64,000 nt of DNA from Candidatus Woesearchaeota archaeon (GTDB lineage: Archaea; Nanobdellota; Nanobdellia; Pacearchaeales; GW2011-AR1): NCBI GenBank assembly GCA_964514585.1, contig CAZETU010000001.1, forward strand, positions 82,523 to 146,522. The letters run 5' to 3'. The stretch's first letter is position 1, and each line of letters starts with the position of its first letter. A model generated the notes under the pieces. It worked only from the letters and a program-made list of their open reading frames with translations, ran no database searches and was not told where the DNA came from. The position numbers and the translations under genes were made by a program. Positions 2,302 to 60,943 of the stretch are shown here, piece by piece.

Positions 2302-3604
2302 TCACAACCCCCAGCAATCTAAACAAAGTTTTTCACGAGGCAGACCTATAGCCTTTTCAAGAATCTCAACGTCAGCGAAATGCAAACCATCAAGCCCCCG
2401 AGTATCTCTAATCTCCTCAAGACTCATACATTTCGCAATACAATCCTCATCATTCTTAATTGATTTACCATACTTACAAGCAGCAACCAAAGGCGGGCAA
2501 GCAATAATAGCATGAACCTCCTTAGCCCCCAAATTCTTCAATCTCTGCGTCTGCTTCCGAGTCTGATTCCCCTTAACAATCGAATCATCAACAATAATAA
2601 TTTTCTTATCTTTAATCAATTCCTTAACGGGAATCAACTTTTCATCAGCAACCTGATGCTGTTCTTCAAGAGTACTTGGAGTAAAACTCCTTCCACTATA
2701 ATCAAATTTCTTAAAAACCTCTAAATAAGGAATCCCCGACGCATTAGCAAACCCAGTGGCATGACATCTCCCTGAATTCGGAATCGGAGAAACCAAATCA
2801 GCATCAATCTTGTATTTCTCCGCCATTAAAGCCCCAATTTTATTTCTAACAAGTTCAACACTTTTACCGTCAATAATAGATGCTGGATGTGCCGTATAAA
2901 TCCACTCAAAAGTACCATACCTAATATTTTTCAAATCAAACTGAGCAACAAAATTAATCCCATCCTCATTCAATAAAACAACCTCTCCAGGCCTAACATC
3001 TCTAACAATTTCAAACCCAGTATTAATAAAAGAAACACTCTCAGAAGACACCGCGTAACTCCCATCTTTCTTACCCAAAATCAAGGGCTTCCTCCCCCAT
3101 CCTCGCGCCGCATAAATTCCCTCAGGAGTAAGCGCAACCAAAGCAAAATCTCCCTTCACCTGCTCAAACAAACTCTCAATACCATTCTCAAAATTAAACT
3201 CTTTAGATATTATTTTAGAAATCAAAACAGCGTCACTAATTTCCTCAGGATTATGATACCCAGAAAAACTCGCCCCACCCTTCAATAGATTATTCTTCAC
3301 CTCAAAATAATTAAATATATTCCCATCAACACAAAGAATCATACCCCCCCCTCCTGGCTAATTCCGAAACAGGCTCTCTACTCCCAGAAACACAGGCTAT
3401 AGCATAGCTCCCCTTCATCCAATCTTCCTTCCTTGAAAAGTTTTCACGGAAAAGCCCTTTGTGTGTAGTATTCTTCAACTTTCCATTAGAATTTTTCCAT
3501 GCCAACCCACAATAGTCCTCACAACGATTCTGTAAATAAAAAACTCCAGAAAGAGCATCTCGAATACAATCTTTCTTAGAAACCACCCCAAAAATTCCTG
3601 ACAT
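2302..3604 (-). pseudogene. purF: Amidophosphoribosyltransferase-like gene, split by a frameshift at a G8 tract (3344-3351)
   Basis: N-terminal ORF 3326-3604 (MSGIFG...) and C-terminal ORF 2302-3342 (PRTase motif IIIVDDSIVKG, Fe-S cysteines CPP...CKYG...CLDC). G7 or G10 would fuse them as ...ELARRGGMILCVDGN. Confidence 0.8.
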
Positions 3605-5325: not shown

Positions 5326-8300
5326 TCACTTAGCATCACAAGTCATCACATTCTTCGCGATAAACGAATTCCCATATTCCTCATCCTCAACATACTTCCC
5401 AGAAAGTTTAACCGCATCCCCTTCCTTAATCCGTCTATCACTCAACGCCTCACGAAAATCATTAGGGAAAACCGTCACCTTCAACTCACTCGATTTAGAA
5501 CTTATATCCATAAACGCCATATCATCCCCATTCTTCGTCACAATCTGCGTGTACCTTTTAACAATCCCAAAAATATCCGCCTCCATATCATGCTTCAAAC
5601 TTTCAAAAGAAGTAAAATCCCCATTCTTCGCCTCATGATAAGCATCAATCTGATGACCACTAACACAAGCACCCAAAAGTTCACATTCTAAATCCAATTT
5701 AACCTTCAATTTCATCGGCGGCAAATCCGGATATTCAACAACATTCGCAACCCCACCAAACAAAGTCATCTGTTTCTCGGCAGCGTTACTATGCTTCTCA
5801 ACCCTATCATAAACTTCCAATAAGCTCGCCCGATTAATCCCCATATCATCAAAACACCCAACACTAATCAAAGAATGGCAAACCCGCTTATTCACCTTCG
5901 ACAAATCAACCCTATTCACAAAATCCTGATAACTCTTATATGGTCGACCCTCCATAATCTTCACCATCGCTTCACCCCCTACATTCTTAATCCCAGACAA
6001 CCCAACACGAATCAATTTGCCCGTTTTAGATGGAGATTCGTCAGAATCTCCTATAGGGGGTACGCCCGTGCGTGTCTCACCATCGACTTCGGGCTCACCA
6101 GAGTCATGTCCGCCGAGGACCTCAACGCTAAAATCCTCCCGAGAAGTATTAATATCAGGATGCAAAATCTTAATCCCCTCACTTCTAGCCGACTCTAAAT
6201 AAAAGGCCAACTTATCAGGATCACGAATCGCCGACGAAATTGTAGCCGCAAAAAATTCAACAGGATAATATTTCTTCAAATAAGCAGTTCGATATGAAAT
6301 CAAAGCATAAGCGGCCGCATGACTTTTATTAAAACTATAAGCCGCAAACTTCACAATATCATCCCACAACTTATCAACAGCAACCCTCTCCATCCCCGAA
6401 TGATTTATACAACCATCCTTAAACTGAACCTCCATCTTATGCATCAAATCAATCTTCTTCTTCCCAATTGCCTTCCTCAAAACATCAGAATCCCCAGCAC
6501 TAAAACCAGCCAACGCCCTCGACAACTGCATCACCTGTTCCTGATAAACCATAATGCCATAAGTCGGCGCCAAAATTTTCTCAGCATTAGGATGAACATA
6601 AACAACCTCCTCTTTCCCTGCCTTTCGATTTGCATAAGCAGGAATATACTGCATTGGACCCGGACGATACAAAGCACCAATAGCAATAAGATCATCAAAA
6701 CGATCAGGCTGCACCTGTCTCAATGTCTTTCTCATTCCCTCACTTTCAAATTGAAAAACTCCAATACTTTTCTCTTCTCGCAACATCTTATAAACCGAAT
6801 CATCATCCATCGGCAAATTTTCCAACCACTTATCATCCTTACCAATCGCATCCAAAACTTTCTTAATAACATTCAAAGTCTCTAAGCCCAACATATCAAA
6901 CTTCACCAAACCATAAGTCTCAATATCGGGCCCCTCAACCTGAGTAATCACATCCCCATGCTTAGCATACGTCGGAATATATTCATTAATCCCTTCCTTC
7001 CCCCAAACAACACCACAAGCATGAACGCCCTTATGCCGGACACACCCCTCAAGCCTAGAAGCAATCTCAAAAATTTGCTTATACTTTTCTTTAAAATTAT
7101 TTAGCTGTGCAGCGTCATCAGTTGGCTTTCCATCCTCACGGCAAGCTTCCAAGCTTTTCTTAATCGTTTTCTCATTAACCAACTTGGTAATCGCATTAGC
7201 CTCTTCAAACGGAACCCGAAAAACCCTCATGACATCTTTCAAAACCGACTTCGCACTCATTGTTCCAAAAGTCCCAATCATCGCAATCTTTTCCTTACCA
7301 TACTTCTTCCGAACATAATCCAAAACAACATCCTTATCCCCAAAGTCAACATCAAAGTCTGGTAAAGAAATCCTATCAGGATTCAAAAAACGCTCAAACA
7401 ACAAACCCAACACCAACGGATCCAACTGCGTAATCCCAAGACTATAGGCAACAATCGAACCAGCACCACTCCCCCGACCAGGACCAACTTGACAAAATTT
7501 CTTAGCCTCCCGAATAAAATCCGCAACAATCAAAAAATAAGTCTCAAACCCCATCTTCCCAATAACGTCCAACTCAAAATTCATCCGGTCAATAGCCTCC
7601 TTGTAATTCTCCTTATCTTTATATCTTTCATCAAGTCCTTCTTTACACAACTTATACAAATAATCTTTATGGCTCATTCCATCGGGCGCGTCAAAATGTG
7701 GAAAAATAGGCTCACCCATATCCAACTCAACATTACACTTATCCGCGACCTCACAAGTATTCGAAATCCACTCCTGGTTATCTCCAAACTTCTCCAACAT
7801 CTCATCCTCGCTCTTCACCCAATAACCCTCTCCACTAAACCGAAACCGTTTCTCATCATCCATATTCCCATTCGTCCCAACCGCCAACATAACCTCGTGT
7901 GCATAAGCATCATCTTTTTTCAAAAAATGAGAATCAACCGTCGCAACAACCTTCAAACCATACTCCCCACCCATCCTCTTATAAAAATCAACGACCTTCG
8001 CCTCCTCGGCAATCCCATGATTCTGAACCTCTAAATAAAAATCCTCCTTCCCAAAAACATTAATATAATCTTCAATCAACTTTTTAGCCTTTTCTTCATC
8101 GTTATTATTAACCGCCCTAGCAATATCATTCGCAATACAAGCACTCATACAAATCAACCCCTTAGAATGTTTCCTCAAAAAATCCATATCAATCCGCGCC
8201 CGATAATAAAACCCCTCGTTATTAGCAGTCGAAACAAGCCGAACCAAATTCTTATATCCCTCTAAATCCTTAGCCAACAAAATCAAATGATAATTAGGCA

Positions 8301-8538
8301 TGTCCTTATCCCGCGACTTCATATCCTTAGTAACATAAGCCTCAAAACCAAAAATCAACTTCACTCCAGCCTTCTTAGCCAACTGATACTTCTTAACAAC
8401 CGCCCCCATATTCCCATGCTCAGTAATAGCAACCGCACTCTGACCCAACTCCTTAACCCGATCAAATAACTCAGAAATCTTCGTAGCCCCATCTAAAAGA
8501 GAATACTCAGTATGCAAATGCAAATGCGTAAATCCCAT
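5326..8538 (-). CDS. dnaE: DNA polymerase III alpha subunit (family C, bacterial DnaE type)
   Basis: PHP domain (HLHLHTEYSLLDG, TEHGN, GFEAY, YHLILLA, SAC, VDSH), GPGRGSGAGS, LLFERFLNPDR, catalytic PDFDVD, KFDMLGL, YQEQVM, FNKSHAAAY, clamp motif QMTLF and a C-terminal OB fold. Confidence 0.98.
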   Translation of the reverse strand: MGFTHLHLHTEYSLLDGATKISELFDRVKELGQSAVAITEHGNMGAVVKKYQLAKKAGVKLIFGFEAYVTKDMKSRDKDMPNYHLILLAKDLEGYKNLVRLVSTANNEGFYYRARIDMDFLRKHSKGLICMSACIANDIARAVNNNDEEKAKKLIEDYINVFGKEDFYLEVQNHGIAEEAKVVDFYKRMGGEYGLKVVATVDSHFLKKDDAYAHEVMLAVGTNGNMDDEKRFRFSGEGYWVKSEDEMLEKFGDNQEWISNTCEVADKCNVELDMGEPIFPHFDAPDGMSHKDYLYKLCKEGLDERYKDKENYKEAIDRMNFELDVIGKMGFETYFLIVADFIREAKKFCQVGPGRGSGAGSIVAYSLGITQLDPLVLGLLFERFLNPDRISLPDFDVDFGDKDVVLDYVRKKYGKEKIAMIGTFGTMSAKSVLKDVMRVFRVPFEEANAITKLVNEKTIKKSLEACREDGKPTDDAAQLNNFKEKYKQIFEIASRLEGCVRHKGVHACGVVWGKEGINEYIPTYAKHGDVITQVEGPDIETYGLVKFDMLGLETLNVIKKVLDAIGKDDKWLENLPMDDDSVYKMLREEKSIGVFQFESEGMRKTLRQVQPDRFDDLIAIGALYRPGPMQYIPAYANRKAGKEEVVYVHPNAEKILAPTYGIMVYQEQVMQLSRALAGFSAGDSDVLRKAIGKKKIDLMHKMEVQFKDGCINHSGMERVAVDKLWDDIVKFAAYSFNKSHAAAYALISYRTAYLKKYYPVEFFAATISSAIRDPDKLAFYLESARSEGIKILHPDINTSREDFSVEVLGGHDSGEPEVDGETRTGVPPIGDSDESPSKTGKLIRVGLSGIKNVGGEAMVKIMEGRPYKSYQDFVNRVDLSKVNKRVCHSLISVGCFDDMGINRASLLEVYDRVEKHSNAAEKQMTLFGGVANVVEYPDLPPMKLKVKLDLECELLGACVSGHQIDAYHEAKNGDFTSFESLKHDMEADIFGIVKRYTQIVTKNGDDMAFMDISSKSSELKVTVFPNDFREALSDRRIKEGDAVKLSGKYVEDEEYGNSFIAKNVMTCDAK

Positions 8539-8639
8539 CCTAAAAAAAACAAAAGACCCTTTAAATTTATTATCGTGCTACTAAATAATTACAAACAAAA
8601 AATATTATACAAAAAATTAATCTTTAAAAATTCACTTCA

Positions 8640-9134
8640 CTAATAACTAGAATCCCACTTACCAATACTATATTTCCTTTCAAAAAATTCCATAAACTCT
8701 TTATTGCTCGCTATATTTTGGAATATTTCATCTACGTCCATAGACCCTAATTTAGGATGATTTTTATATTTACTAGAAACAACCCTAAGGGGGTAGTTTG
8801 GATAAATTAACTTCAATAAATCAAATAATAGCTCAGTATCATGTAATTCATCACCATCTCCTTCGCCCAATAAATCTGCCTCCTCAACCCAATTTTCAAA
8901 TTCAGCTATTACTTTTGTTTGAGTTAAGGTATCCTTTCCTATGGTTTCTTTTTTAATCCAATCAATAATTTTTTTATGTAGTGATGGAATCATATGAGCA
9001 TGCTTACAACAACACCAAGAGCTCAAATAATTAAAAAATATTTCTGATCTATAATAATTTTCTTCATTTAAAAATTCTTCAACAATCTCCTCATCAACAA
9101 TAAAAATTTCCTTACTCTCTTTAGGAAATTCCAT
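8640..9134 (-). CDS. Hypothetical protein, possibly degenerate PIN-like domain
   Basis: 164 aa acidic ORF; IFIVDEE and DELHDTELL loosely resemble PIN acidic motifs. Confidence 0.6.
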   Translation of the reverse strand: MEFPKESKEIFIVDEEIVEEFLNEENYYRSEIFFNYLSSWCCCKHAHMIPSLHKKIIDWIKKETIGKDTLTQTKVIAEFENWVEEADLLGEGDGDELHDTELLFDLLKLIYPNYPLRVVSSKYKNHPKLGSMDVDEIFQNIASNKEFMEFFERKYSIGKWDSSY

Positions 9135-9140
9135 TATTAT

Positions 9141-9392
9141 TTAGAAATCAAACTTCTTATTAAGAAGCCCAGCACTTGAAATTGCATCTCTAAAACCATC
9201 TGTGGGTTTCTGTGCTCCTTTAATCTCTCTAGTAATCATTCTAAGTGGGGAATTCTTCACAACCATTATTTCTAAAAAATCCTCCATACCCATCTTTCTT
9301 GCAATTCTCTCCGCAGGAGAGATAGAACTACCTTTAACAATAGTAATACTCTTAACTTCCGAATCTTTATTTAATTCCATAAGATTTTCCAT
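9141..9392 (-). CDS. Hypothetical protein (83 aa)
   Basis: ORF ends 6 bp before the start of 8640-9134, an operon-like pair. Confidence 0.55.
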   Translation of the reverse strand: MENLMELNKDSEVKSITIVKGSSISPAERIARKMGMEDFLEIMVVKNSPLRMITREIKGAQKPTDGFRDAISSAGLLNKKFDF

Positions 9393-9551
9393 AGAATTTA
9401 TGATATAAACCTTTCGGTCACCCCTTTTATTAAATCACTACAAATATCTAACTTTAAAAAACTTATGATGAAATAATTTTTATTGTTAGAATTCATACTA
9501 TTTTCAGGTAACACGTGTATTTATATTTTTCTTTTTTATAGTACTATACAC

Positions 9552-12500
9552 TCAAAACTCCCCCAACTTCGCGTCCTTCTCACCCTTCCCAAAAATCGAT
9601 TCAATATACATCCGCGTTAACTCAACCCCTTCCTTAGTATAAGACGACAAATTATAATTCTTAGTCAAGCTCATTGCCGAATCCAAATACTTCTTTATCG
9701 ACCCCTCACTAATCGTAAAAATAATTCGGCCCCCACACTTCGTACAAACCCCACTCAAAGGCGGCCTCCGAAATTTCTCATTACAACTACTACACCTAAA
9801 CTGCTGCCGCGCAAACTTCCTCAAATTCCCACGAATATCCCTCAAAAAATGCCTCTCCAAAATAAGTCTCGCAACATCATCAGTATCAACCGCCCGAATC
9901 TTCTTAACCAAATCCATCTGCGCATCAACCTTCTCCTTCATCGTCGGCAAAATCTTATACGCCCCATTATTATAACCCAAATTTAAATCACTAGTATCAT
10001 GCGTAAACCCTGCTCCAATAAACGGTTCGCCTTCCTTCATCTTATCCCGAACCAACTCAACGTCTTCTGCCATCACAGAATGCACCCCTTTCTCAGCCAA
10101 CCTATAAAAATCCAAACTATACCCACTCCCCGTATCAAGAAACAAAATCTGATCATCAACTTCACTAGCCCGAATCCTAGAATTCAAAACCAACGGCGCA
10201 TCCTGACTACCTCCACGATGCCCAGGTAAAAACTTCCTAGAAAAATTCAACAAAACATCCATCAACAACATCACAGCAGCCTCGTCCCCATCACAATCCC
10301 GCCGAATCGCCGCATGCATATAAGGACTAGCAACAATCCCCTGCATCTCGCTCCACCCAATAATCCGACCAATAACTCCCGCGCAATTATGCGGCGCCAT
10401 ACAAACAACCAACCGCCCAACCAAATCCTCCTTCGACTTCAAATTATAATATTTATCCATCTTGTAAAACCGCGCCAACTCCTCATCAACAAAATTCGCA
10501 ATATTCAAAAAAACATCATCCGCCTTCTCGTCCTTAGTCACAGAACACGACGGCATCACAATATCATGCGGCTTCAACTCCAAAACCTGATCATCCTTCA
10601 ACAACTCCTCCCCATGAATATCCTTATCATAACCAAGACTCTTCAATTTCTCAATACTAACCCGAATCTCAAACGGCTTAAAATGCGTCAACGGAATCTC
10701 AGTCCCATCATACCGAACCGTCCCATCCTTATTTACAGACAAATTAAACTTCGCCCTCAAAATCCCCTTCGCTAAATTCTCCGGGACATAACTATTATTA
10801 TTCAAAGACTTAACCCCTTTAACCATCGGCGGCACCTCAAAATCCTCATACCCAAGCAAAGCCCGCGCCGTCGCAAAATAATATTTAACGTCAATTTTCC
10901 TATTTGAAAAATCAAAACAATTATCATGCAATTTACAAATATCATCCTTATTCTCAAAACAGCCCCGACAATGATAAGATTTCAAAACACTCCCCCCACA
11001 TTTTTCACAAGAAGGATAAATCGTCTCATCTCCACATTTTTCACATTTACGAAGCGGCCAATTAGACTTCACAAACCCAGCTTCAACAGCATCTTGCACA
11101 CTCCTCAGCCGACCACCCTGATCACTAACAGGGAACAAAACATTCGGACTCCCAGTCAAATGCCGAGGCTTCGCCTTCTCCGGCCGACCCATCCGCGCCC
11201 CAATAAAACTCCCAGCCTTATCTTTAATCTTAAACTTCGACAACCCATTAACAACTTTCAAAACATCACCATCAAAATCCCCCTCCAACTTAAACATCTC
11301 CCCATCCATCATAAAATCCCGGCCCAAATTAACCAACAGAGCCTTCGCATCGTCACTAATCACAACATTATCCAAAACAATAGAATGTTCAATTCCTAAA
11401 ATTTCCAAGGCCCGTTTCGCCTTACCATAATTCTCCCGATTAGATTTCTCCCACGGCAAAACCAACTTACCATTCTCACCACCTCGCCAAACACCCTTAT
11501 TCAACCATTCGGCCAAAGCCAAAAAATCCTCATTCATAATCTGCGTCCAATAAAAAATATAACGCGGATGAAGTGGAATAGAATATTTCAAACTAACCCT
11601 CATCGCCTCCTCGGGTGAAACAAAAAACTCGGGAGCCTCACCAGTCACATCCAATTTCTCCTTCAATTCCAAATCCCACCACTCTTCAACATAGCCAGGC
11701 CGCAACAAATCAGAATTTCTGTCCATTACATCCCCTACTGGAAACAACATATCCCCAAGATAAATAATCTCATCGACCTCTCCATAAATTTTCTTCGCCT
11801 CCTCAAAATTACTAATTCTCTTCACCGACCCATCCTTCATCTTCACAATCGGTCCATCAATACCATCATTCGAAGTAATAATACAGCCCTTCGTTGGCTT
11901 CTCAATTTTCAACTGCGTTCCATTAGACAAAAACCCATTACTAATCCCCATCGTCGCAGGATGAACAGACACCGCGCTAAACCCACTCGTTCGCCCTCGA
12001 CCATATCGAATCCGAAAACCACCACTCCTCGACGGATGCCCATAAACCGGACGCCCCGCAACTAAATCCTTAATATAAGTCGCAACAACTTCCTCGTCGC
12101 CTCCCTCCCGTTTCTTATGTAACTCCAAATACCCAACCAACCAATCCCAACCAGTACAAACCAACTCATTATCCTTAACACTCTTCAAACGACCAAGCGC
12201 CTTCCCAGCCTTCTGCGCCAACCCCTCACTAAAAGCCAGACACATCCCACCCCGAATAAAATTAGTATGCACCCGCGGCAAATCCTTATAATTCGAAACT
12301 TCTAATCTACTAGTAGGATCCCCATCAATTTGAAATGGCAAATGACTCGCCAAAAAAGCCATCTCCTCTTCCGTCGGAAAATACTGCAAGTTAGTAACCC
12401 TCTCATGAAAATCAGTATTCTCGGTCACATACCTCTTAACCTCCTCTCCACTCGGATCAAACTTAGCATAACCAAAATGCTCCCGCAAATAATCAATCAA

Positions 12501-13007
12501 CATCAAAACAACACAAACCGAAGTCGTCCCAGCCGAACGAATCGGCCCACTAAAACTCGCGATAAAATAATCCTTACCTTCTCGGGTTTTCCCCAATCTC
12601 AAACCCGTATAACCCTCAATCGGCGGAACCACAACCCCCAAAGTCATATAAGCAAAACCAACCCGAATCCCAGCATCAATCGCCTCCAACTGATCCTTAA
12701 ACTTACCAAACTTACCCTCGGCAATCTCCCGCGCAATCACAAAACTAACGGTCGTATCCAACTGTCCATACATCCCTTCCAGCTCCCCCATCCTTTTAGA
12801 AATCCTCTCAATAGGTAAATCAGGATAAACAACCGCAACCAAACGAACAGCCTTCTCAGTCATAGTCACAGCCAACGGCGATTCAACTTCTTTAACAGGA
12901 TCCAACCCCTTGCTCCGAGCCTCACTAGCAACTTCATACTCCTTAATCACTTGAGCCTCTAAATCCGCAAAATATTTCTCACTATCCCACTTATACAAAT
13001 CATTCAT
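9552..13007 (-). CDS. polC: DNA polymerase D large subunit DP2
   Basis: FSGPIRSAGTT, RYGRGRTSG, RMGRPEKAK, GTVRYDGT, catalytic RRDCDGDE and C-terminal Zn finger. Start placed at ATG 13007 (MNDLYKW), overlapping the DP1 stop. No intein seen. Confidence 0.98.
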   Translation of the reverse strand: MNDLYKWDSEKYFADLEAQVIKEYEVASEARSKGLDPVKEVESPLAVTMTEKAVRLVAVVYPDLPIERISKRMGELEGMYGQLDTTVSFVIAREIAEGKFGKFKDQLEAIDAGIRVGFAYMTLGVVVPPIEGYTGLRLGKTREGKDYFIASFSGPIRSAGTTSVCVVLMLIDYLREHFGYAKFDPSGEEVKRYVTENTDFHERVTNLQYFPTEEEMAFLASHLPFQIDGDPTSRLEVSNYKDLPRVHTNFIRGGMCLAFSEGLAQKAGKALGRLKSVKDNELVCTGWDWLVGYLELHKKREGGDEEVVATYIKDLVAGRPVYGHPSRSGGFRIRYGRGRTSGFSAVSVHPATMGISNGFLSNGTQLKIEKPTKGCIITSNDGIDGPIVKMKDGSVKRISNFEEAKKIYGEVDEIIYLGDMLFPVGDVMDRNSDLLRPGYVEEWWDLELKEKLDVTGEAPEFFVSPEEAMRVSLKYSIPLHPRYIFYWTQIMNEDFLALAEWLNKGVWRGGENGKLVLPWEKSNRENYGKAKRALEILGIEHSIVLDNVVISDDAKALLVNLGRDFMMDGEMFKLEGDFDGDVLKVVNGLSKFKIKDKAGSFIGARMGRPEKAKPRHLTGSPNVLFPVSDQGGRLRSVQDAVEAGFVKSNWPLRKCEKCGDETIYPSCEKCGGSVLKSYHCRGCFENKDDICKLHDNCFDFSNRKIDVKYYFATARALLGYEDFEVPPMVKGVKSLNNNSYVPENLAKGILRAKFNLSVNKDGTVRYDGTEIPLTHFKPFEIRVSIEKLKSLGYDKDIHGEELLKDDQVLELKPHDIVMPSCSVTKDEKADDVFLNIANFVDEELARFYKMDKYYNLKSKEDLVGRLVVCMAPHNCAGVIGRIIGWSEMQGIVASPYMHAAIRRDCDGDEAAVMLLMDVLLNFSRKFLPGHRGGSQDAPLVLNSRIRASEVDDQILFLDTGSGYSLDFYRLAEKGVHSVMAEDVELVRDKMKEGEPFIGAGFTHDTSDLNLGYNNGAYKILPTMKEKVDAQMDLVKKIRAVDTDDVARLILERHFLRDIRGNLRKFARQQFRCSSCNEKFRRPPLSGVCTKCGGRIIFTISEGSIKKYLDSAMSLTKNYNLSSYTKEGVELTRMYIESIFGKGEKDAKLGEF

Positions 13008-14514
13008 CTTTAACCCCCACTTTACAGTCACTAAGCTCACAAATCAAATCCTCACCAGTCTCCCACTTCACATCATCATCCCCAGAAAAATCAACAATCT
13101 TAACTTCCCTAGTCTTCAAATTAACCAACGGCACCTTACAAGGATCCGGCACATTCCCAACCTTTTCCTCAAACGGAGTCATCGACTGCCAACACGAACT
13201 CGAAACCAACAAAATATTATTATAACTACAAATCTCCGCCCGATGCTGATCCGCCGTCGCAACAATATCCGGCACAACATCAATCACCAAAGGATCCTTC
13301 TCCTCACAAGGAATATAATCCATCACCCCATGCATCGGAGCCAAATGCCGCCGCTTCAACATCTCCTTCACAACCCTCGTCGGATTCCCGTGCCCGCTCT
13401 CGACCCGAATATCATCCATCTGATTAATAAAACGATTTATACTCGCCCCGTGATACATCAAAACCTTAAACCCGCCCCCAATCTCAACCAAAGCCGGATT
13501 AGTAACTAAATGCAAATTCTCCATCTCATACAACCCCGGCGCCCACTTCCGCGAAATCATAGGCTGCGGCTCACCCAACCAAACCGAATCGTGCTGCCCC
13601 GGACACATAATAATCTCAACATCCTTCCGAATCAACTTCAACAACTCCTCAACCTTCCGATACTGCCCCAAAGACGTCTTAATATTCAACCACTTATCCT
13701 GATCCGCAAAAATCCCAACCCCATCAATATTATCCCCAGTCAAAAACAAATACTTAACCTTCATCGCAATCGCCCTCTGCCTATCATCCCCAACCCCACC
13801 ATTCAACCACTTAATAAATTTCAACAAATTCTTCTCTAAAAACATCGTCGACCCAGTATGAAAATCCCCACTAAAAGCAACATACTCATCAACATTCCCG
13901 TGCCGCTCCTTCTCCAGCCCCGCATCAGGATAAATAATATCACTCACAAACAACATCTTCCCCGTCCCCGAAACCCGAAACGCAACAATATCGTCAACCA
14001 ACAAATTCTTCGCCTTCTCAAAAACCTCCCGCCGATCCTGGTTAACCAAGACAACACTATTCCCCGTCAAATCCTCAACCTCAAAAAGCATATTCTTATT
14101 CTTAGTAATCCTCTTATCCGTCACCGCTGCAATAATCGTACAAACAATATTATTAGAATCAATTTTCCGAAGCGAACTCAAATTATCAAACCCCCTCTCC
14201 TCTAAAATCCCCTTCAACACCCCATAACGATACCTAAAATGATTAATAAAATCCTTAACCTCAATCTTCCGCTGCGAAAAACTAACCGACGAAATCAACT
14301 TCACAGACCCCTCATTATCAACCTTCACACCCCCAAACTTATCAGAATAACTCAAAAACAAACTCCTAGTCACCAAACCCCTATTAATACCCATCTTCTC
14401 AAACGAATCAATAACCTTCTCAGCGACCCCCTCATCCATCCCAGAAAAATATTCCAACATCTCTTTATCTAAAAGATATCCCATTTCCCTGCAAAGCTTC
14501 AATATTTCTACCAT
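13000..14514 (-). CDS. polB: DNA polymerase D small subunit DP1 (proofreading exonuclease)
   Basis: OB fold plus calcineurin-like motifs GDFH, GDNIDG, PGQHD, HG and RHLAP. Confidence 0.95.
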   Translation of the reverse strand: MVEILKLCREMGYLLDKEMLEYFSGMDEGVAEKVIDSFEKMGINRGLVTRSLFLSYSDKFGGVKVDNEGSVKLISSVSFSQRKIEVKDFINHFRYRYGVLKGILEERGFDNLSSLRKIDSNNIVCTIIAAVTDKRITKNKNMLFEVEDLTGNSVVLVNQDRREVFEKAKNLLVDDIVAFRVSGTGKMLFVSDIIYPDAGLEKERHGNVDEYVAFSGDFHTGSTMFLEKNLLKFIKWLNGGVGDDRQRAIAMKVKYLFLTGDNIDGVGIFADQDKWLNIKTSLGQYRKVEELLKLIRKDVEIIMCPGQHDSVWLGEPQPMISRKWAPGLYEMENLHLVTNPALVEIGGGFKVLMYHGASINRFINQMDDIRVESGHGNPTRVVKEMLKRRHLAPMHGVMDYIPCEEKDPLVIDVVPDIVATADQHRAEICSYNNILLVSSSCWQSMTPFEEKVGNVPDPCKVPLVNLKTREVKIVDFSGDDDVKWETGEDLICELSDCKVGVKDE

Positions 14515-14578
14515 CCAAAATCGAGGAATCTACAACTCAATGGAGTTTGTCCTCAGTATTACCTTATTTTACTTATTT

Positions 14579-15793
14579 TTAAAGCCCCAACGACTCAATA
14601 AGAATCGCCTCAACTTTATCAAACAAATTCGACGGAACTGACAACCTAATTTCACGCGTCCTACCATGCCGTCCCTTCGAAATGACCTTCGCATTAATTA
14701 AACCCAACATATCAATCTCAGCCAAAATATCACTAATCCTCCGCTGAGTCAAAGAATCCGTCTTCGTATCATCACAAAGCCCCTGATAATAATTATAAAC
14801 ATCCCCAGTAAAAAACCTATCAACACCCTGGTCCTTAAATTGCTTCGTCAATTGCAATATAGAATACAAAACCAGCTGAAACTGCTTCGGCTCCCCTTCA
14901 ACAATATCCAAAATCTTATCCCGTTCCATTTTCATATTCGCCAAATCAATATAATCCTCCCCAATCAACTCCTTACCTTCCCTCTCACTAAGCTCCCCAG
15001 CAATCCTAAGCAAATCTAACGCTCTCCTGGCATCACCATGTTCCCTCGCCGCATAAGCCGCACACTTCGCAATAACACCGTCAGCAACAGTATTCTCCTT
15101 AAACGCCTCCTCACATCGATCTTTCAAAATATCTTGCAACTGAATCGCATTATAAGGATGAAAAACAAACTCTTCCTCACCCAAACTCGACCGAACCCTA
15201 GGGTCAATATTCTCCAAAAAAGTCACCTCATTAGAAATCCCAATAATCGAAATCTGAGCCAAACTCAATTCCTGATTCAACCTCGTCAAAGAATAAAGAA
15301 AATTATCACTCATCTTCTTAATCGCCTGATCAATCTCATCAAAAATAAAAACAATCAACTGCTTCTTACTATCAACCAACTCAATAAACTTAGACCAGAC
15401 CTGATCCGTCGGCAATCCCGTTGCGGGAACTGAGCCCCCAAGCTGATGAATCAAAGCCGCCAAAATTCTATACTCAGTATCAGCAACCTTCTTCAACTTA
15501 CAATTCAAATATTCAAATCTCACATTAACATCCAACTCAATTGATTTCTTAACCAACTCATTTCTAACATACTCAACAGAAAGCGTTTTTCCAGTTCCCG
15601 TTTTCCCATAAACAAACAAATTACTGGGCCTCTCTCCTCGAAGCGCCGAAGCTAAAATTTCAGCAATTGATTTAATCTGCTCATCCCTATGGGGTATCGA
15701 CTCGGGTGTATAACGAACCTGTAACACACTTTTATTCTTAAAAAGACTATTATTAACAGCCGAATCAAAAATCTCACCCAACTCAACACCCAT
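14579..15793 (-). CDS. cdc6: Orc1/Cdc6 replication initiator
   Basis: PHRDEQI, Walker A GKTGTGKT, Walker B IFDEID, GDARRALDLLR and a C-terminal winged helix (GRHGRTREI). Confidence 0.97.
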   Translation of the reverse strand: MGVELGEIFDSAVNNSLFKNKSVLQVRYTPESIPHRDEQIKSIAEILASALRGERPSNLFVYGKTGTGKTLSVEYVRNELVKKSIELDVNVRFEYLNCKLKKVADTEYRILAALIHQLGGSVPATGLPTDQVWSKFIELVDSKKQLIVFIFDEIDQAIKKMSDNFLYSLTRLNQELSLAQISIIGISNEVTFLENIDPRVRSSLGEEEFVFHPYNAIQLQDILKDRCEEAFKENTVADGVIAKCAAYAAREHGDARRALDLLRIAGELSEREGKELIGEDYIDLANMKMERDKILDIVEGEPKQFQLVLYSILQLTKQFKDQGVDRFFTGDVYNYYQGLCDDTKTDSLTQRRISDILAEIDMLGLINAKVISKGRHGRTREIRLSVPSNLFDKVEAILIESLGL

Positions 15794-15865: not shown

Positions 15866-16187
15866 ACCCCTACTTCTCTTGGAATTAAAACTCTACTTCT
15901 TTATTAATATTAAGACAAAAATAATCAAAATCTCCTCGATAAATCAATTTTATTAATAATTAACCCTCACCCCCCTATTTCCTCTCCAAGAGAAATCTAA
16001 AATTCAAATTTTTTTAATAGAATCCAAAGTATATACTACAATATATCCATCATAACATACTATATTTAATAATATATAATATAATATATATAATATATAA
16101 TATAAATATTTATAAATAAAAATTAAAAAACAAAAACAAAAAAGTCCCCAAAAACTTTAAAAAACTTTCTATGAGAAACCAAGGGGT
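15866..16187. other. Putative replication origin: ORB-like boxes flanking an AT-rich unwinding element
   Basis: Minus strand TTCCAAGAGAAGTAGGGGT (15866-15884) and TTGGAGAGGAAATAGGGGGGT (15969-15989); plus strand TTCTATGAGAAACCAAGGGGT (16167-16187). A nearly pure A/T tract lies at about 16050-16130, directly upstream of cdc6. Confidence 0.75.
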
Positions 16188-16326: not shown

Positions 16327-16581
16327 ATGGAGAAAAAACCATTCAAAGCTCTTCTTGGAAAACAAGTTGTAACAAAAGAGGGTAAAAAATTAGGTATTGT
16401 TAAAGATATAACATTTGAAGCCAGAACAGGCGAATTAATACACATTGTCCTTAGGGATTTAACAACATACACAGCAAATTTATCTTTAGAAAGGACAAAA
16501 GAAAGAGAAGCGTTGGTTCCATATAATTCAGTTATAGCAGTTGGTGATTTTATTGTAGTTTCAGAAGAAGATCTATTATAA
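16327..16581 (+). CDS. PRC-barrel domain protein
   Basis: LLGKQVVTKEGKKLGIVKDI..E..TGEL and VPYNSVIAVGDFIVV. Confidence 0.9.
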   Translation: MEKKPFKALLGKQVVTKEGKKLGIVKDITFEARTGELIHIVLRDLTTYTANLSLERTKEREALVPYNSVIAVGDFIVVSEEDLL

Positions 16582-43931: not shown

Positions 43932-44065
43932 ACATTACATCAAAATTCCATTTTATAAACTTAACGATTCAAAAAATTCAACGCTCCTGACAGGACTTCA
44001 CTCACCAGAGGGATGTCAAATGGACGCGATCACCAGATCACCTACTGGGTGAACCTCAGGTTCAA

Positions 44066-44141
44066 CGCTCCTGACAGGACTTGAACCTGCGACTTCTTCC
44101 TTAGGAGGGAAGCACTCTAATCCAAACTGAGCTACAGGAGC
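44066..44141 (-). tRNA. tRNA-Arg(CCT)
   Basis: GCTCCTG/CAGGAGC plus G; CTTCC-CTCCTAA-GGAAG; GTTCAAG. The 3' end is duplicated at 43977-43998. Confidence 0.95.
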
Positions 44142-44276
44142 ATAAAACAATCAACAGAAAACTCTTTTTAAAATTAATGAGGGAAGGAGGATTAAAAGTC
44201 CTTTACGAACTTTTCAGCAAATCTTTGATTTGCGCTTCAAGCTTCTCCGAAGCGCCGGTCGTTCGAATCCGACACA

Positions 44277-44360
44277 TGAGGGAAGGAGGATTCGAACCCC
44301 CGTAAGCATAAAGCTAACAGATCTTGAGTCTGCCCCGTTTGACCACTCCGGCATTCCCTC
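44277..44360 (-). tRNA. tRNA-Leu(CAA)
   Basis: GAGGGAA/TTCCCTC plus A; GCAGA-CTCAAGA-TCTGT; long variable arm. The 3' end is duplicated at 44177-44193. Confidence 0.95.
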
Positions 44361-44668
44361 ATAATATAACTCAATAAATTCAATATAAAAAGTTATTGAT
44401 AGTTTTCATGAGAAATTATGCGGCGAAGCCCATGATTTTTTATGAAATAAAAAATAGATAATATCCGAAATTTATTTCCAGAAACTATCCCTAGGAATTC
44501 TAAAAAATTCCCCTAACGATTTTCACACCAGTGAAAATATTAATTCATCTATGCGCGGCCGTTGATTAGGATCGTTGCGTAGCTTAGGTTTTTGGTTGGG
44601 TATTAGGCGAGATAAAAACCTCAGCCTATCTTTCCTAAGAATGCTGATTAAGAGCCCGACAAAGCCCC

Positions 44669-45916
44669 TTAAATTGCCTTTGTGGGCGTTTTGTAGCACT
44701 TGTTATCTTCTAGTAGCCATTTCCAAACTGGCATCAGAATTATTTCCTTGCTTTCAATTTCAAATTTGTCCTCTTGATTATGTGTTAAGATTAGCCCCTG
44801 TTTTAGCTTCAATTCATTCATTGCTTCCAGTAAGCCATTTATTTCCCTATCTCTATTTTCTTTATTAAAATCATAGCAAACCTGAATTGCTTGAATAACT
44901 TTTTCTTTCTCTTTAACTATAAAATCACATTCTTTGTCTTTTTGAAAATAAAATATTTCTTTGTATTTTTTTCTTAGATTTAGGAATACTTCATTTTCTA
45001 GCATTTTCCCTTTATCTTTTGAAAAGGAAACTGAGTTAGCATAAGAGAGTCCATTATCTATGGAATAGACTTTTTTTGGATTAACTTGCTGTTTTTTGTA
45101 GGAGTAGCTAAATTTAGGTATTGTGAAAATTAAATAAGAATCCTCCAAGTAAGAAATATAGTCTATGATTGTTTGGACTGATTTGACTTCTAACATTTTT
45201 TTAAGAGAGTTTGCGGAGAATTCTTTTCCAACATTACTTAATAAATAAATTGCTAATTTATTTAGTATAGCGGTATTTTTAATCCCAAACCTATTGACTA
45301 TGTCTCTCATTAAAACATCTCTTAATAATTCATGCAAGAGAGTTTCGTCATCATCTTTTAAGAATTCTGGAAATCCTCCTTTGTATAAATAATCTGAATA
45401 AGATTTTTCATTTGGTTTCTGCTTGGAGAATCTTAAAAATTCAGTATAAGAAAATGGAAAGAGCTCGTAGCTTAAGTGTCTTCCAGTAAGTCTTGTCCCA
45501 AGTTCTCGGCTTAGAAGTGATGCATTTGAACCTGTTATCATTACTTTGTTTTTTCTGTCCACTAAATATCTAATGAATTTTTCCCATTTGTCAATATTTT
45601 GAATCTCATCAAAAAAGTAAACTCCTCCAGCGCCATAAATTTCATTAAAAATTTCTTCTGCGATATTGAAATCTGTTAGCTTAAAACCTTCTAGTCTAGG
45701 GTCTTCAAGATTTAGATAATAAAAAACTTTTTGTCCTTTTAGAATTTGATTCAGAAGGGTGCTCTTTCCGCATCTTCTAATCCCTGCAACAACTAAGGCA
45801 AAGGACTTATTCAATTTTATTTCTTCAGTCTTTTCTCTAGAGATACCTTTTTCAGTTGATTCTACCCATTTTCTTTGTTCTTTTATTACTTTGGTTAGGT
45901 CTTCTTTTGTTATCAT
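44669..45916 (-). CDS. AAA_14 ATPase with DUF4143 (COG1373)
   Basis: GIRRCGKST, FFDEIQ, TGSN, GGFPE, KKVYSIDNG, LENEVF, ECDF. Confidence 0.93.
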   Translation of the reverse strand: MITKEDLTKVIKEQRKWVESTEKGISREKTEEIKLNKSFALVVAGIRRCGKSTLLNQILKGQKVFYYLNLEDPRLEGFKLTDFNIAEEIFNEIYGAGGVYFFDEIQNIDKWEKFIRYLVDRKNKVMITGSNASLLSRELGTRLTGRHLSYELFPFSYTEFLRFSKQKPNEKSYSDYLYKGGFPEFLKDDDETLLHELLRDVLMRDIVNRFGIKNTAILNKLAIYLLSNVGKEFSANSLKKMLEVKSVQTIIDYISYLEDSYLIFTIPKFSYSYKKQQVNPKKVYSIDNGLSYANSVSFSKDKGKMLENEVFLNLRKKYKEIFYFQKDKECDFIVKEKEKVIQAIQVCYDFNKENRDREINGLLEAMNELKLKQGLILTHNQEDKFEIESKEIILMPVWKWLLEDNKCYKTPTKAI

Positions 45917-45940
45917 GTTTTATATAAGATATTTAATTTT

Positions 45941-45996
45941 ATAAAGGTTTCTATTGGGAATGGAAACTTCTTTCTATTGGGAATGGAAACCTTTAT
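45941..45996. promoter_or_regulatory. 20-bp tandem direct repeat inside an 11-bp inverted repeat, upstream of the ATPase
   Basis: TTTCTATTGGGAATGGAAAC at 45948-45967 and 45971-45990; ATAAAGGTTTC/GAAACCTTTAT flanks. Confidence 0.7.
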
Positions 45997-46131
45997 GTTA
46001 ACTCTATCCCCTCCCCTAAGCCCCCCACGTCAGTACTATCATACATACATATTATGCCGACTGACTCTTTGGTAATTTTGTTTAATTTTCATCGACGATA
46101 AACTCTGTCCTACACCCAAGAAATCGGAGTC

Positions 46132-46761
46132 CTATTTTTGGGCTTTTTTTGCTAATTTTACTAGCTTATCTAGCCTCGATTTTACATATCTTTTGTCAAC
46201 TGCATCACCATATTTTTTATATTTTTTCACCTTATTTCTATCCGTCACAACGAAAAACCACTTATCATAATTTTCCAAAACTTTCAGCTTCTCTTTCATC
46301 CTACTAATTTTAGAAAAGATGGAACCCGTTTCAATTTCAATCGCAAATCTCTTTCCACGAATTTCAAAAACAATATCCGGTTTTTTAGTCACAAATAATT
46401 CCGTTTCAATCCCATTCTTTTCTAAGAACTCAGAAATATTCTTAGTTAGAAATAGGTGAGTAAAACTTTCATTATGTCTTGGGAGCAAAAGAAAGTCTTC
46501 CATTTTCCCATTCAAGAGATTTTTATATTTTTTAATTTGATAATCATCATTCAAGAGATATTTGACTTCGTGTTTGGTTATATTTTTCTTATGAAAATAT
46601 CTTTTATCTGAATCAACTTTTATATTCACACTTCTTCGATAGGTTCCAATAGGCAGAGGTTTATATGGTTCTTCATCTTCAGTCTCTTCAGAGTCTAATT
46701 CTTCATTTTTATCATCCACAGCATATTCTAAATTTACTTTCCCAATTTTCTTCTTCGGCAT
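46132..46761 (-). CDS. PD-(D/E)xK nuclease-like protein; reading frame is open upstream to about 47060 and adds TM segments
   Basis: HNESFTH, KPDIVF...FAIEIETGS. Confidence 0.7.
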   Translation of the reverse strand: MPKKKIGKVNLEYAVDDKNEELDSEETEDEEPYKPLPIGTYRRSVNIKVDSDKRYFHKKNITKHEVKYLLNDDYQIKKYKNLLNGKMEDFLLLPRHNESFTHLFLTKNISEFLEKNGIETELFVTKKPDIVFEIRGKRFAIEIETGSIFSKISRMKEKLKVLENYDKWFFVVTDRNKVKKYKKYGDAVDKRYVKSRLDKLVKLAKKAQK

Positions 46762-47000
46762 TTTCTTAATCCTTTCTTTTTCCTCAAGTTCCCATTTTTT
46801 ATAATTTCTACGCGATTTGTAACGGAAAAATATTAAGAGGATTATTCCAAGAAAAGCAATAGAAAAAATAGTAATAATAAAAATCGGATTAATAATGAAA
46901 GAGAATAACTTACTAGGAAATTCTTGAATGTTCTTTTTAATTTTTTGAAGTGGTTCTGCAAGAATGACTAAAAGAGCTCCTACGGATAATAAAAATGGAA

Positions 47001-48203
47001 CTAATGCGTCGTCAGAAGTTTCAATCTTATTGCCTCCTGAATATTTCCATAAACTCGATTAACATCCACCGTTATCGCAACCATCTGCCTTTTCATATTT
47101 TCAACCTGAACTTCTAGTAACTCTGACCTATTTTCTGATTTTGTAAGTCGCTTTTCTAATTCTGTTTTAGTTACATCAATTAGTAAATCCTCTTCAGAAA
47201 TTGTATCTCTCATCCCAAGCATTTCAGAATAATAATGAATCTTGTCAGATTTCTTCCATCCGAATCTGAATTTTAATGCTGATTCGGATTTGTATCTTGG
47301 CAACCAATAGCAACAACTGCAATGCCTAAAATCATACATTGTTAAATCAGAATATTTCTGGCCTGCCAAGCTTTTTTCATCACCAAATAGTTTTTTAGCA
47401 ACTCTTTTCAAATAACGATTCACGACTGGCGGACTAAATTTGAACAGATAATCTTCTGTATCTAATTCATTCTCCTTGATGTATCTTTTAACTAATTCGG
47501 AACAAATCATCAGCTTAATCCTTCTTCCGAAAGTTTTGCTTATTTCATCCCGAATGTTCAACTCCTTAAAATCCTTAGACAAATCAGAAACTTTCACATT
47601 CATTAATTCAGTTGGAGACCTAATTCCTGTATCAAATAAAAACATCACAATCGTCTTATATTTTGGGTTGCAGTTTTCGGAGAATAATTTTATTTGCTCT
47701 TCATTTAAATAAACCCATTTGGGTTTCTCTCTAGAAGTATCTAAGTAAGTTGTAATATCTTCAACCTCTTTTCCCGCCTTCCTTGCGACTTTTTGATACC
47801 AGTGCCAGAATGCCTTAAACATCTTGACAAAGTCTCGTGTCGCCTTATATTCGCGCCCGTCCTGCCGTCTTATCACTCCCTTTCTCATATCAACAAAGAA
47901 TTGGCAGAGTTGTTGCTCTGTCAATTTAGTCAAGTCATCAACATCTAAAACTTCTTTAAATTTTCTAGTCAGAAAAGTTAGTCTGAGCCTAATCGTATTA
48001 AGTCTTATAAAACTTCTAGCACCTTTTTTCGAAGATAAGGAAGTGTTGATTCCAAGTTCCATATCAATCAAGTATTGTAGAATTATTGACGAGTTAGCTC
48101 TGGAGAGGTCAGGAATGCCCCCTGCTTCCTTGACTCTATTTTTCCAACGGGTCAGCGACCCTTCGTGGTTATAAGGATCAATCTTCATGGTGTCAGTGTC
48201 CAC
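47001..48203 (-). CDS. Tyrosine integrase next to the tRNA-Gly 3' end
   Basis: FDTGIRSPTEL, SKT, YDFRH, RFGW, HYYS; C-terminal coiled coil. Confidence 0.9.
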   Translation of the reverse strand: MDTDTMKIDPYNHEGSLTRWKNRVKEAGGIPDLSRANSSIILQYLIDMELGINTSLSSKKGARSFIRLNTIRLRLTFLTRKFKEVLDVDDLTKLTEQQLCQFFVDMRKGVIRRQDGREYKATRDFVKMFKAFWHWYQKVARKAGKEVEDITTYLDTSREKPKWVYLNEEQIKLFSENCNPKYKTIVMFLFDTGIRSPTELMNVKVSDLSKDFKELNIRDEISKTFGRRIKLMICSELVKRYIKENELDTEDYLFKFSPPVVNRYLKRVAKKLFGDEKSLAGQKYSDLTMYDFRHCSCCYWLPRYKSESALKFRFGWKKSDKIHYYSEMLGMRDTISEEDLLIDVTKTELEKRLTKSENRSELLEVQVENMKRQMVAITVDVNRVYGNIQEAIRLKLLTTH

Positions 48204-48345
48204 ATGGACGCGTTATTTAATAATTGTCGAGAACGAAAGAATATAATAGACTGGACAGGACATCTGCTAATTCTTGTTTTTTTCTGTTTCATTTAGTTTA
48301 TTTCTAAACAAAAAGTAGTCCCACCAAGATGCCAAAAAGGTAGAA

Positions 48346-48457
48346 TGCGCGGGCGGGGACTCGAACCCCGGTCATTTGGTCTCTTCATTGAAGGCAATAG
48401 ATATTCCATCAACTAAACATTTGGAAGCCAAATATTCTGCCACTAAACTACCCACGC
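48346..48457 (-). tRNA. tRNA-Gly(TCC) with a 41-nt intron at 37/38 (48381-48421)
   Basis: GCGTGGG/CCCGCGC plus A; TTTGG-CTTCCA|intron|A-CCAAA; BHB central helix CTTC/GAAG. Confidence 0.92.
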
Positions 48458-48483
48458 ACAAAATAATCATCTAATTCAAGGTT

Positions 48484-48816
48484 TTAAAGTTTATTGTTTT
48501 TGAAATGTTTTTTCCGATGACAGTTGGAACAAAGGGCCTCACACTTATCTAATTCAGACTTTATTCTTTCGATAGAAAATCCATCAGCAACCATTTTAGA
48601 AATACCCTCTTCTTTCTTTCCAGTTTTATGATGAAAATCAATAGTAGCAGGATGATCTTCTCCACACAAACAACATCGCAAAGAGGATTTATGTTTCCGA
48701 AACCACGCCCGAATTTCATTTTTACGCTTCTTAACATGGGCCTTTTCTGAAGCTTTATTATTCGCATACCACCTACGCCTACAATCCCTTCTTTTTTCTA
48801 AATCCCTGTATGGCAT
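48484..48816 (-). CDS. HNH endonuclease
   Basis: CCLCGE...IDFHH...KCEALCSNCHRKKH. Confidence 0.88.
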   Translation of the reverse strand: MPYRDLEKRRDCRRRWYANNKASEKAHVKKRKNEIRAWFRKHKSSLRCCLCGEDHPATIDFHHKTGKKEEGISKMVADGFSIERIKSELDKCEALCSNCHRKKHFKNNKL

Positions 48817-48908
48817 AAAAAATTAAGGATACCAAACTTTATAATAGTTTGGATTCCCTATCCCCCCTCAACAATTAACTTTAAAACTAAACATTTTCTA
48901 ACTATATT

Positions 48909-59410: not shown

Positions 59411-60840
59411 ATGAGAGATAGTCCGATGAGAGTCATGTTCGTTTATCATAATCAAGTTGAAGATGGATTTATGCCCCAGGCCATTGCTGTCCTTGGGGGG
59501 ATGATGAGAGATCATAACATAGAAACAAAATTATTTGATACAACACTTTATCGAGATAAAGACTCACACCTTGCTAGAACAGATAGAGAGCTTAGAGAAA
59601 GTCAGGCAAAAGGAGGATATCAGAAAGTTGAGGGGTTTGATCATACGAGAGAAGTGGTTGACTTAGCGGGTAAATTCTATGAAGAAGTAGAAAAATATAA
59701 ACCAGATTTAATCGCTGCTACTTCAACTTCTTTTGAATTCGGATCCTTGACTAGATTCATTCTTCCTGCAAAAAGAGCTTTTGAGGTCCCAGTAATTGTT
59801 GGGGCTCGCATGCCACTGTAGTGCCATATGAAGCAATTCAAAATCCGGCGGTAGATTACGTTTGTGTAGGAGAAGGAGAAAGGCCCCTTTTGAGCTTAGT
59901 AAGGGGGTTGGAGGGAAATGTGGATACCTCAAAAATTCCCAACCTCGTTGTAAAAAAACAAGGAAGAATTATTACCAATTCTCGTTTCCCCATTCTTACA
60001 ATGGATGAAACTCCAGATGCAGATTGGGATTTATTGGGAGAACTACATAGAATTCGCCCATTCGAAGGGAAATTAAAAAAATATGGTTGGTTTGAAACAA
60101 GTAGAGGATGTCCACACGAATGTAGTTATTGTATTAATTCAGCATTACACGGCATGGAGGCCCCCGGGGAAATTCAACCAGGAGATTATAGATTTTTTAG
60201 CCAAGATAAAATTATTAGTAGAATGGTGGCAAAGAAAGAGAGATATGGGTATGATCATGTCCAACTTATTGATGAAAATCTGGCCGCCAGGCCCCAAAGA
60301 GAACTAGAAAAACTTGCAGAGGCATTCAAAGAGAATGTTGGAGTCGGGTTTTTTACTCAGAGTCGTCCTGAGCAATTTATCGGGAGGTCAAAGAAGGCCA
60401 AAATCATGGCCGAAATGGGTTGTGAGATGGTTGCCATGGGAATGGAGTCTGGAAGTGAATCGTTGAGAAAAAATGTATTAAATAGACCGATGAAAGACGG
60501 GATAATTGAAGAGGCAGTGGACGCCTTAAGAAAAGAGGGGATAAAAGTTGCCGGTTATTATATAATGGGATTCCCTGGAGAAACAAGAGAAATGATAGAG
60601 GAAACAATTGCTTTGCATAAAAGAGTTCAACCAGATAGATTTTCTGTCAGATTTTTACATCCATTTCCTGGGACCACAATCAGGGAATTGTGTATCGAGA
60701 AAGGTTATCTATCACCGGATTTTGAATCCAGAAACCAGGACGCAAGCTTTTTTAAAGATCCAGTTTTAAATCTTCCCTCTCCTCCACATCCATCAAGAGA
60801 AGAATTATTTGAACTACAAGCAAAACTACAAAATAGCTAA
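59411..60840 (+). pseudogene. B12-binding radical SAM enzyme, frameshifted at G4 (59801-59804)
   Basis: One extra G gives VIVGGSHATVVPYEAI...VCVGEGE. CPHECSYC cluster motif is in the downstream ORF. Confidence 0.85.
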
Positions 60841-60943
60841 TTATTTCACAAAAATTCTCTTCTTATTTTTTCTTCAATACTTTTTGCATCTAATTCAAAT
60901 TTTTTATAAAGATTTTCAAAGTAAATATATTAGTTTACCTCAA

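Follow-up and report, generated by a model that had tools for sequence, protein, structure and literature searches.

Why would an archaeal chromosome carry a complete bacterial-type replicase directly behind the genes of its own replicative polymerase? The question is raised by a stretch of 64,000 nt from a Candidatus Woesearchaeota archaeon (contig CAZETU010000001.1), called here the window, with coordinates counted from window position 1 and no N inside; the genome (1.04 Mb, 18 contigs) is 90% complete. On the minus strand of the window, the gene for the Orc1/Cdc6 initiator (cdc6, 14579-15793) is followed by those for the small and large subunits of the family D polymerase PolD (DP1, 13000-14514; DP2, 9552-13040) and, after two small open reading frames (ORFs), by an intact family C polymerase of the Pol III alpha type (DnaE, 1070 aa, 5326-8538), exactly where a preliminary description of the window had placed them. 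That description left open whether the pairing had been reported, and it had been: the accessible part of Castelle et al. 2021 (PMC8204110) describes, in two genomes of Pacearchaeota, a 'DNA polymerase III' adjoining the PolD genes, highly divergent from bacterial sequences and with lateral transfer suggested. These are the same genes as here and very likely the same protein clade; that part of the paper proposes no function and holds nothing on fusions, a clamp motif or the state of PolD. We describe here a coupling between the presence of DnaE and the decay of PolD, which suggests that two unrelated replicases share the work.

Of the 49 genomes in the genus, 29 encode DnaE, 46 DP2 and 48 the family B polymerase PolB. 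In 26 of the 29 carriers, DnaE lies on the contig of DP2 and behind it, usually separated from it by at most one small ORF (in the remaining three, the locus is interrupted by contig ends), and in five of these 26 the two genes form one in-frame DP2-DnaE fusion of ~2150-2260 aa. The preliminary description had considered the gene long-resident; synteny, fusions, congruent trees and purifying selection on DnaE (dN/dS of 0.10-0.15) bear this out. The ORFs between DP2 and DnaE vary from genome to genome. Those of the window, of 164 aa (8640-9134, minus strand, 29% GC) and 83 aa (9141-9392, minus strand), fall outside the conserved unit and have no homologue in any other DP2-DnaE locus examined; not being conserved, they are rejected as polymerase subunits. 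The 164-aa ORF has no match in Pfam, NCBIfam or PHROG, and its Atlas matches stay below 0.9. By eye, this low-GC pair (8640-9392) resembles an antitoxin and a degenerate PIN-like gene, for which searches gave no support. In the other genera of the family, DnaE is found in 0 of 22 sampled genomes; outside the genus, a family C match occurs in five of 395 sampled genomes, three of them from the same DnaE clade. Some archaea outside the genus have DnaE and DP2 in a tail-to-tail arrangement, or DnaE placed before a DP2 that is split.

The DP2 subunits of the genus terminate in a single motif at the position of the internal PCNA-interacting peptide (iPIP), and the P. abyssi iPIP aligns to that tail. 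In Thermococcales, both PCNA and primase bind to the C-terminal PIP region of DP2 (PMC7101311, PMC8096248). The motif (of the QxxLxxWF type) is whole in all 14 DnaE-less genomes with a complete DP2 end and in none of the 24 carriers; it is also whole in the DnaE-less family outgroups (9/9). In carriers, it is clipped after Leu, deprived of its Gln, or gone, with genome G020 nearest to the whole form. In the DP2 of the window (~9552-9580, minus strand), the Gln is lost and a single aromatic residue remains, with the catalytic DGD intact. The same contrast is seen in a genus of another family (whole in 17/17 DnaE-less genomes vs. 0/2 carriers) and in a third family (whole in G474, clipped in carrier G194). 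Carriers are mostly one clade, and Fisher tests across genomes are set aside here, since related genomes do not count as independent; on the RpoA tree, the three independent pairs on well-supported branches all agree with the coupling.

The decay is not restricted to the tail. In DP1, 13 of 28 carriers and 0 of 16 non-carriers have changes in the exonuclease motifs I-IV. The whole genus departs from the canonical DP1 motifs III and V, and even an "intact" DP1 is therefore a putative exonuclease. Distances relative to RpoA reach 1.76 (unfused) and 2.0 (fused) for the DP2 of carriers vs. 1.10 in non-carriers, and 2.66 (unfused) and 2.95 (fused) for DP1 vs. 1.67. Both subunits thus diverge ~1.6 times faster in carriers, and non-overlapping pairs agree; cdc6 is not accelerated (0.87 vs. 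0.90). Between close pairs, dN/dS in carriers vs. non-carriers is 0.10-0.18 vs. 0.05-0.10 for DP2 and 0.11-0.23 vs. 0.06-0.09 for DP1, with RpoA unchanged. The acceleration spans the whole of DP2; in DP1, the N-terminus, which is the GINS-binding region, is the most affected. In AU tests, the RpoA grouping is rejected with DP2 (p-AU of 0.006) and the DP2 grouping, weakly, with RpoA (0.04). That PolD travels with DnaE status is only a lead, because the groups were named after the trees had been seen and because rates differ.

What kind of enzyme is DnaE? It scores above the cut-off of PRK05673 and below that of PRK05672 (DnaE2), and its domain order (PHP, Pol3 core, (HhH)2, clamp motif, OB) fits the DnaE form of family C. 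Across 93 homologues, the catalytic residues D396, D398 and D548 are invariant, as are the nine metal ligands of the PHP domain (H7, H9, D16, H41, E66, H84, C134, D202 and H204, aligned to Taq, the set being that defined in PMC3919608). The clamp-binding motif, QMTLF (residues 923-927; 5758-5772, minus strand), has the canonical Q and LF form, with Q923 and L926 invariant and F927 nearly so. The predicted fold resembles the Pol III alpha of Taq, M. tuberculosis and E. coli (pLDDT 87, TM ~0.8). The protein stops after the OB fold, and the tau-binding C-terminal domain (CTD) is absent throughout the clade, whereas most homologues outside it extend 70-160 aa beyond OB. The missing CTD is a trait shared with DnaE2, but a degenerate PHP domain and a proline-rich clamp motif are not found; there is no imuA or imuB beside the gene (no genome-wide search was made). 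Whole copies contain no stop codon, and mean identity among unfused carriers is higher for DnaE (76%) than for DP2 (69%). Bacterial DnaE1 with PHP proofreading (T. aquaticus, M. tuberculosis) shares the domain order, catalytic aspartates, nine PHP ligands, QxxLF and fold; the differences are the lack of the tau-binding CTD and a host without detected DnaN, SSB or DnaB. DnaE would work like a proofreading DnaE1, yet, without a CTD, it is not filed as a canonical member. A truncated minor DnaE1 variant without CTD is known (PMC3919608).

On which clamp would such an enzyme run? DnaN is found in no carrier, SSB in none of five genomes tested, and DnaB searches gave nothing over the cut-off in the same number of genomes; the search for DnaX and clamp loaders returned one weak match per genome, to an RFC-sized loader. 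The sole DnaN-like match of the genus (locus L134, G017:C32) is sub-threshold, on a 3.3-kb contig of a DnaE-less genome. The present genome (G000) contains PCNA, an RFC-sized loader subunit, MCM, primase, FEN1 and GINS. Three lines point to PCNA as the clamp of DnaE. First, the C-terminal motif of the host PolB is QxxLF in four of the six genomes read and a longer PIP form in two. Second, a canonical QxxLxxFF PIP occupies this position in the DnaE of one carrier outside the genus, the DP2 of which has none. Third, the PCNA-binding iPIP of P. abyssi is of the short form QLxLI (PMC7101311). A complex model of DnaE residues 885-950 with this genome's PCNA scores 0.71, with the best control at 0.00 (the score mark is reached by 58 of 80 solved pairs and two of 110 mismatched pairs). 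Residues 919-928 are modelled in the PIP pocket, and the runs share at least 47% of contacts, with a partner pLDDT of 37-39. The model indicates fit, not binding, and may pass through likeness, because PIP-PCNA complexes are well represented among solved structures. No carrier-specific change in PCNA is evident by eye. As for a separate proofreader, a 183-aa DEDD exonuclease, below cut-offs, is a doubtful candidate for epsilon: it is also present in DnaE-less G053 and not found in fused G062, and so is not tied to DnaE. In several genomes (G000:C1:231-235 kb, L126), the primase gene sits no more than ~2 kb from PCNA, with a frame of ~520-550 aa that matches a PriS-PriL fusion in size.

The simplest account would place DnaE at the chromosomal fork together with PolD; a repair or passenger role predicts neither the loss of the native clamp tail, of proofreading constraint and of overall conservation in PolD, nor the fusion. 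Lineages of Nanoarchaeia would have domesticated a family C polymerase, bacterial in ancestry and probably transmitted by viruses, which would work at the fork on the archaeal PCNA clamp. It would have taken over clamp-dependent, proofread synthesis. PolD would remain necessary, for one of the strands or else as initiator and scaffold, and would be kept at the fork by binding either the helicase or DnaE, to which it is covalently joined in the fusions. We lean towards a domesticated, proofreading DnaE on PCNA at the fork with PolD as somewhat probable. Within it, a split by strand, with DnaE most likely on clamp-loaded Okazaki fragments, is in our judgement a tentative choice, and bulk synthesis by DnaE a slightly more tentative one. 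It is rather doubtful that the replisome is in the middle of a swap between domains of life, in which DnaE would have become the chief replicase on PCNA, processive and proofreading, and PolD would be shrinking to an initiator or scaffold in the manner of Pol alpha; the stages would then be visible in the DP2-DnaE fusions and in sister species that have or lack DnaE.

Several observations weigh against a fork role for DnaE. The independent contrasts are few, three in the genus (sign test p of 0.25) and two outside. The DP1 of this genome matches the genus consensus, exonuclease motifs included, and 15 of 28 carriers are unchanged in motifs I-IV. PolD is never lost and remains under purifying selection. 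Strand skew is rejected as a DnaE footprint: it peaks in the main carrier clade, but G020, G012 and the fusion genomes are weakly skewed and G008, which lacks DnaE, is strongly skewed, so that skew tracks kinship. Skew alone says little on function, because DnaE-less relatives are skewed too. The remaining points are also those that favour an accessory role, in which DnaE, a high-fidelity polymerase on PCNA, would fill gaps, repair DNA, restart forks or proofread in trans, PolD would copy both strands, and the decay of PolD would reflect the presence of a backup. The PolD core is intact everywhere, the DP2 catalytic motif being preserved in every readable copy; ~40% of the genus dispenses with DnaE; some carriers outside the genus keep DnaE far from PolD; and QxxL is retained in many carrier DP2 tails, QxxL being the core of the iPIP sufficient for processive synthesis in vitro (PMC7101311). 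The lack of the tau domain is likewise shared with accessory DnaE2 (PMC3919608). However, a repair enzyme does not predict loss of the clamp and primase tail of DP2 in several lineages, nor faster evolution along the whole of DP2, nor an in-frame fusion kept in five genomes; the intact PHP site and the canonical clamp motif are DnaE1-like, and PolB is still present for repair. We consider the accessory role possible, and less probable than work at the fork with PolD.

The origin of the gene bears on a further alternative, in which a hotspot behind the PolD operon received DnaE as a passenger, viral or mobile, and the link of DnaE with PolD decay reflects kinship or hitch-hiking. The DnaE proteins from within and outside the genus form one clade on a long stem (support of 1.0), the earliest branches of which lie on virus-like contigs with many small co-directional ORFs and contain inteins. 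The variable ORFs between DP2 and DnaE, the phage genes nearby noted by Castelle et al. 2021 (PMC8204110), and the predominance of one clade among the carriers would also fit a passenger. Against it stand the purifying selection on DnaE with no stops in whole copies, the housekeeping neighbours, a composition ameliorated to the host skew, the recurrence of PIP loss in other families, and the absence of acceleration in cdc6 and RpoA; the passenger role is largely refuted and, to us, improbable. The third-position skew of DnaE (0.78) is close to that of DP2 and cdc6 (0.87), and the line 7981-8040 does contain the 18 C and 6 G on which the preliminary description had based its argument for a shared skew. 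Several close database relatives of DnaE carry the label Pacearchaeota or Nanoarchaeota. Outside the clade, the nearest proteins reach at most 40-47% identity and annotated phages at most 40%. The outside branches are weakly supported and single out no named donor. The DnaE tree largely mirrors the DP2 tree, but the fused DnaE groups weakly with outside members, and the genus may therefore have gained DnaE twice. A second DnaE, split and divergent (41% identity), lies at L071 (G020:C9) amid many small ORFs and without host skew; it is probably a mobile element or a contaminant.

The preliminary description had proposed that DnaE works with PolD or replaces PolB. Synteny, fusions and correlated PolD decay favour the first, within which the division of labour by strand that it suggested, after PolC and DnaE in Firmicutes, is tentative; the second is very improbable, with nothing found in its favour and PolB in nearly every genome of the genus, including this one (802 aa, with catalytic motifs and a PIP box). 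An assembly chimera or contamination, the former raised as a possible objection at the outset, can be dismissed, the same gene order being found in 25 other assemblies and on independent contigs, with host-like composition.

An origin had been placed beside cdc6, and the spacer upstream of the gene does have a matching anatomy. An AT-rich stretch, the putative duplex-unwinding element (16020-16140; 55-60 of 60 bases are A/T in the same spacer of 23 relatives), is flanked by inverted motifs resembling the origin recognition box (ORB), one on the cdc6 side (15969-15989, minus strand) and one on the far side (16167-16186, plus strand). The spacer is bounded by a conserved divergent neighbour, a PRC-barrel protein (16327-16581, plus strand). 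In the spacers of the 23 relatives, the ORB-like motif occurs 25 times, where 0.3 is expected, mostly on the cdc6 side (18/23 vs. 3/23 on the far side). Such features beside cdc6 are those expected of an archaeal oriC; an inversion of GC skew is found neither at cdc6, nor at the ORB-flanked origin, nor within seven large contigs (~970 kb). The one-strand G+T bias is extreme across the genome and the whole window (1-64000), with a chromosome-wide third-position skew of ~0.7 (GC) and ~0.5 (AT) in both gene orientations; family outgroups have only weak skew. DnaE-less relatives have no inversion at cdc6 either, and its absence is therefore not caused by DnaE. We reject the missing inversion as an argument against the origin, since conservation extends to both the ORBs and the AT-rich element, and genomes that lack DnaE are likewise without an inversion. 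One-directional or very asymmetric replication fits these data. The skew resembles that of some Microgenomates, for which a one-strand skew is known and one-directional replication was proposed (PMC7143001).

Other features of the locus and window may be recorded. In the genus of G419 (L248-L266), DP2 seems split into two genes, the C-terminal part having ~730-820 aa; in G419, it lies two ORFs behind DnaE. Between DP1 and DP2, an ORF pair (~410 and ~215 aa) is inserted at L027, L030, L034, L051 and L059; these loci belong to three fusion genomes and to G017 and G048, their sisters without DnaE. In other genomes, that site holds one ORF of ~195 aa. A purF-like gene of the window (2302-3604) is broken into ORFs of 92 and 346 aa with a 17-base overlap, by a frameshift or a sequencing error; in G043, it is a single frame of 434 aa. 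A low-GC, weakly skewed island (~44000-61000) begins at tRNA-Arg and tRNA-Leu genes (44065-44361) and contains an asparagine-synthase-like gene and an AAA/DUF4143 ATPase.

How does this arrangement compare with known replisomes? In Firmicutes (PolC with DnaE1 or DnaE3; PMC3919608), two replicases also coexist, and the DnaE partner may lack a CTD; there, however, both enzymes are of family C and run on the beta-clamp, whereas here the partner is of family D, the clamp would be PCNA, and the native enzyme decays. With the PolD-PCNA-primase system of Thermococcales (PMC7101311, PMC8096248), this genus shares DP1-DP2 with a C-terminal PIP region, but it has one terminal motif at the iPIP position, eroded in carriers of DnaE. 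In Aenigmarchaeota B6, Heimdallarchaeota B10 and Nitrosocaldus, other polymerases accompany the inactivation or loss of PolD subunits (PMC7544198). The decay of PolD is tied there, as here, to the arrival of another proofreading polymerase; in those archaea, the incoming enzyme is of family B, whereas here it is of family C and DP2 stays active. In the literature searched, from which subscription journals were largely absent, we found nothing on this gene pair beyond Castelle et al. 2021, and no report of DnaE presence coupled to PIP loss and relaxed selection in PolD.

The replicases of bacteria (family C) and of archaea (families B and D) are unrelated, and how one displaces another is an open question on the origin of DNA replication. 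In this genus, some genomes have DnaE and their sisters lack it, DnaE is either fused to DP2 or separate, and the decay of PolD is graded. Such genomes make the displacement of a replicase testable: can a family C enzyme work on PCNA with MCM and GINS, and which functions of PolD become dispensable first?

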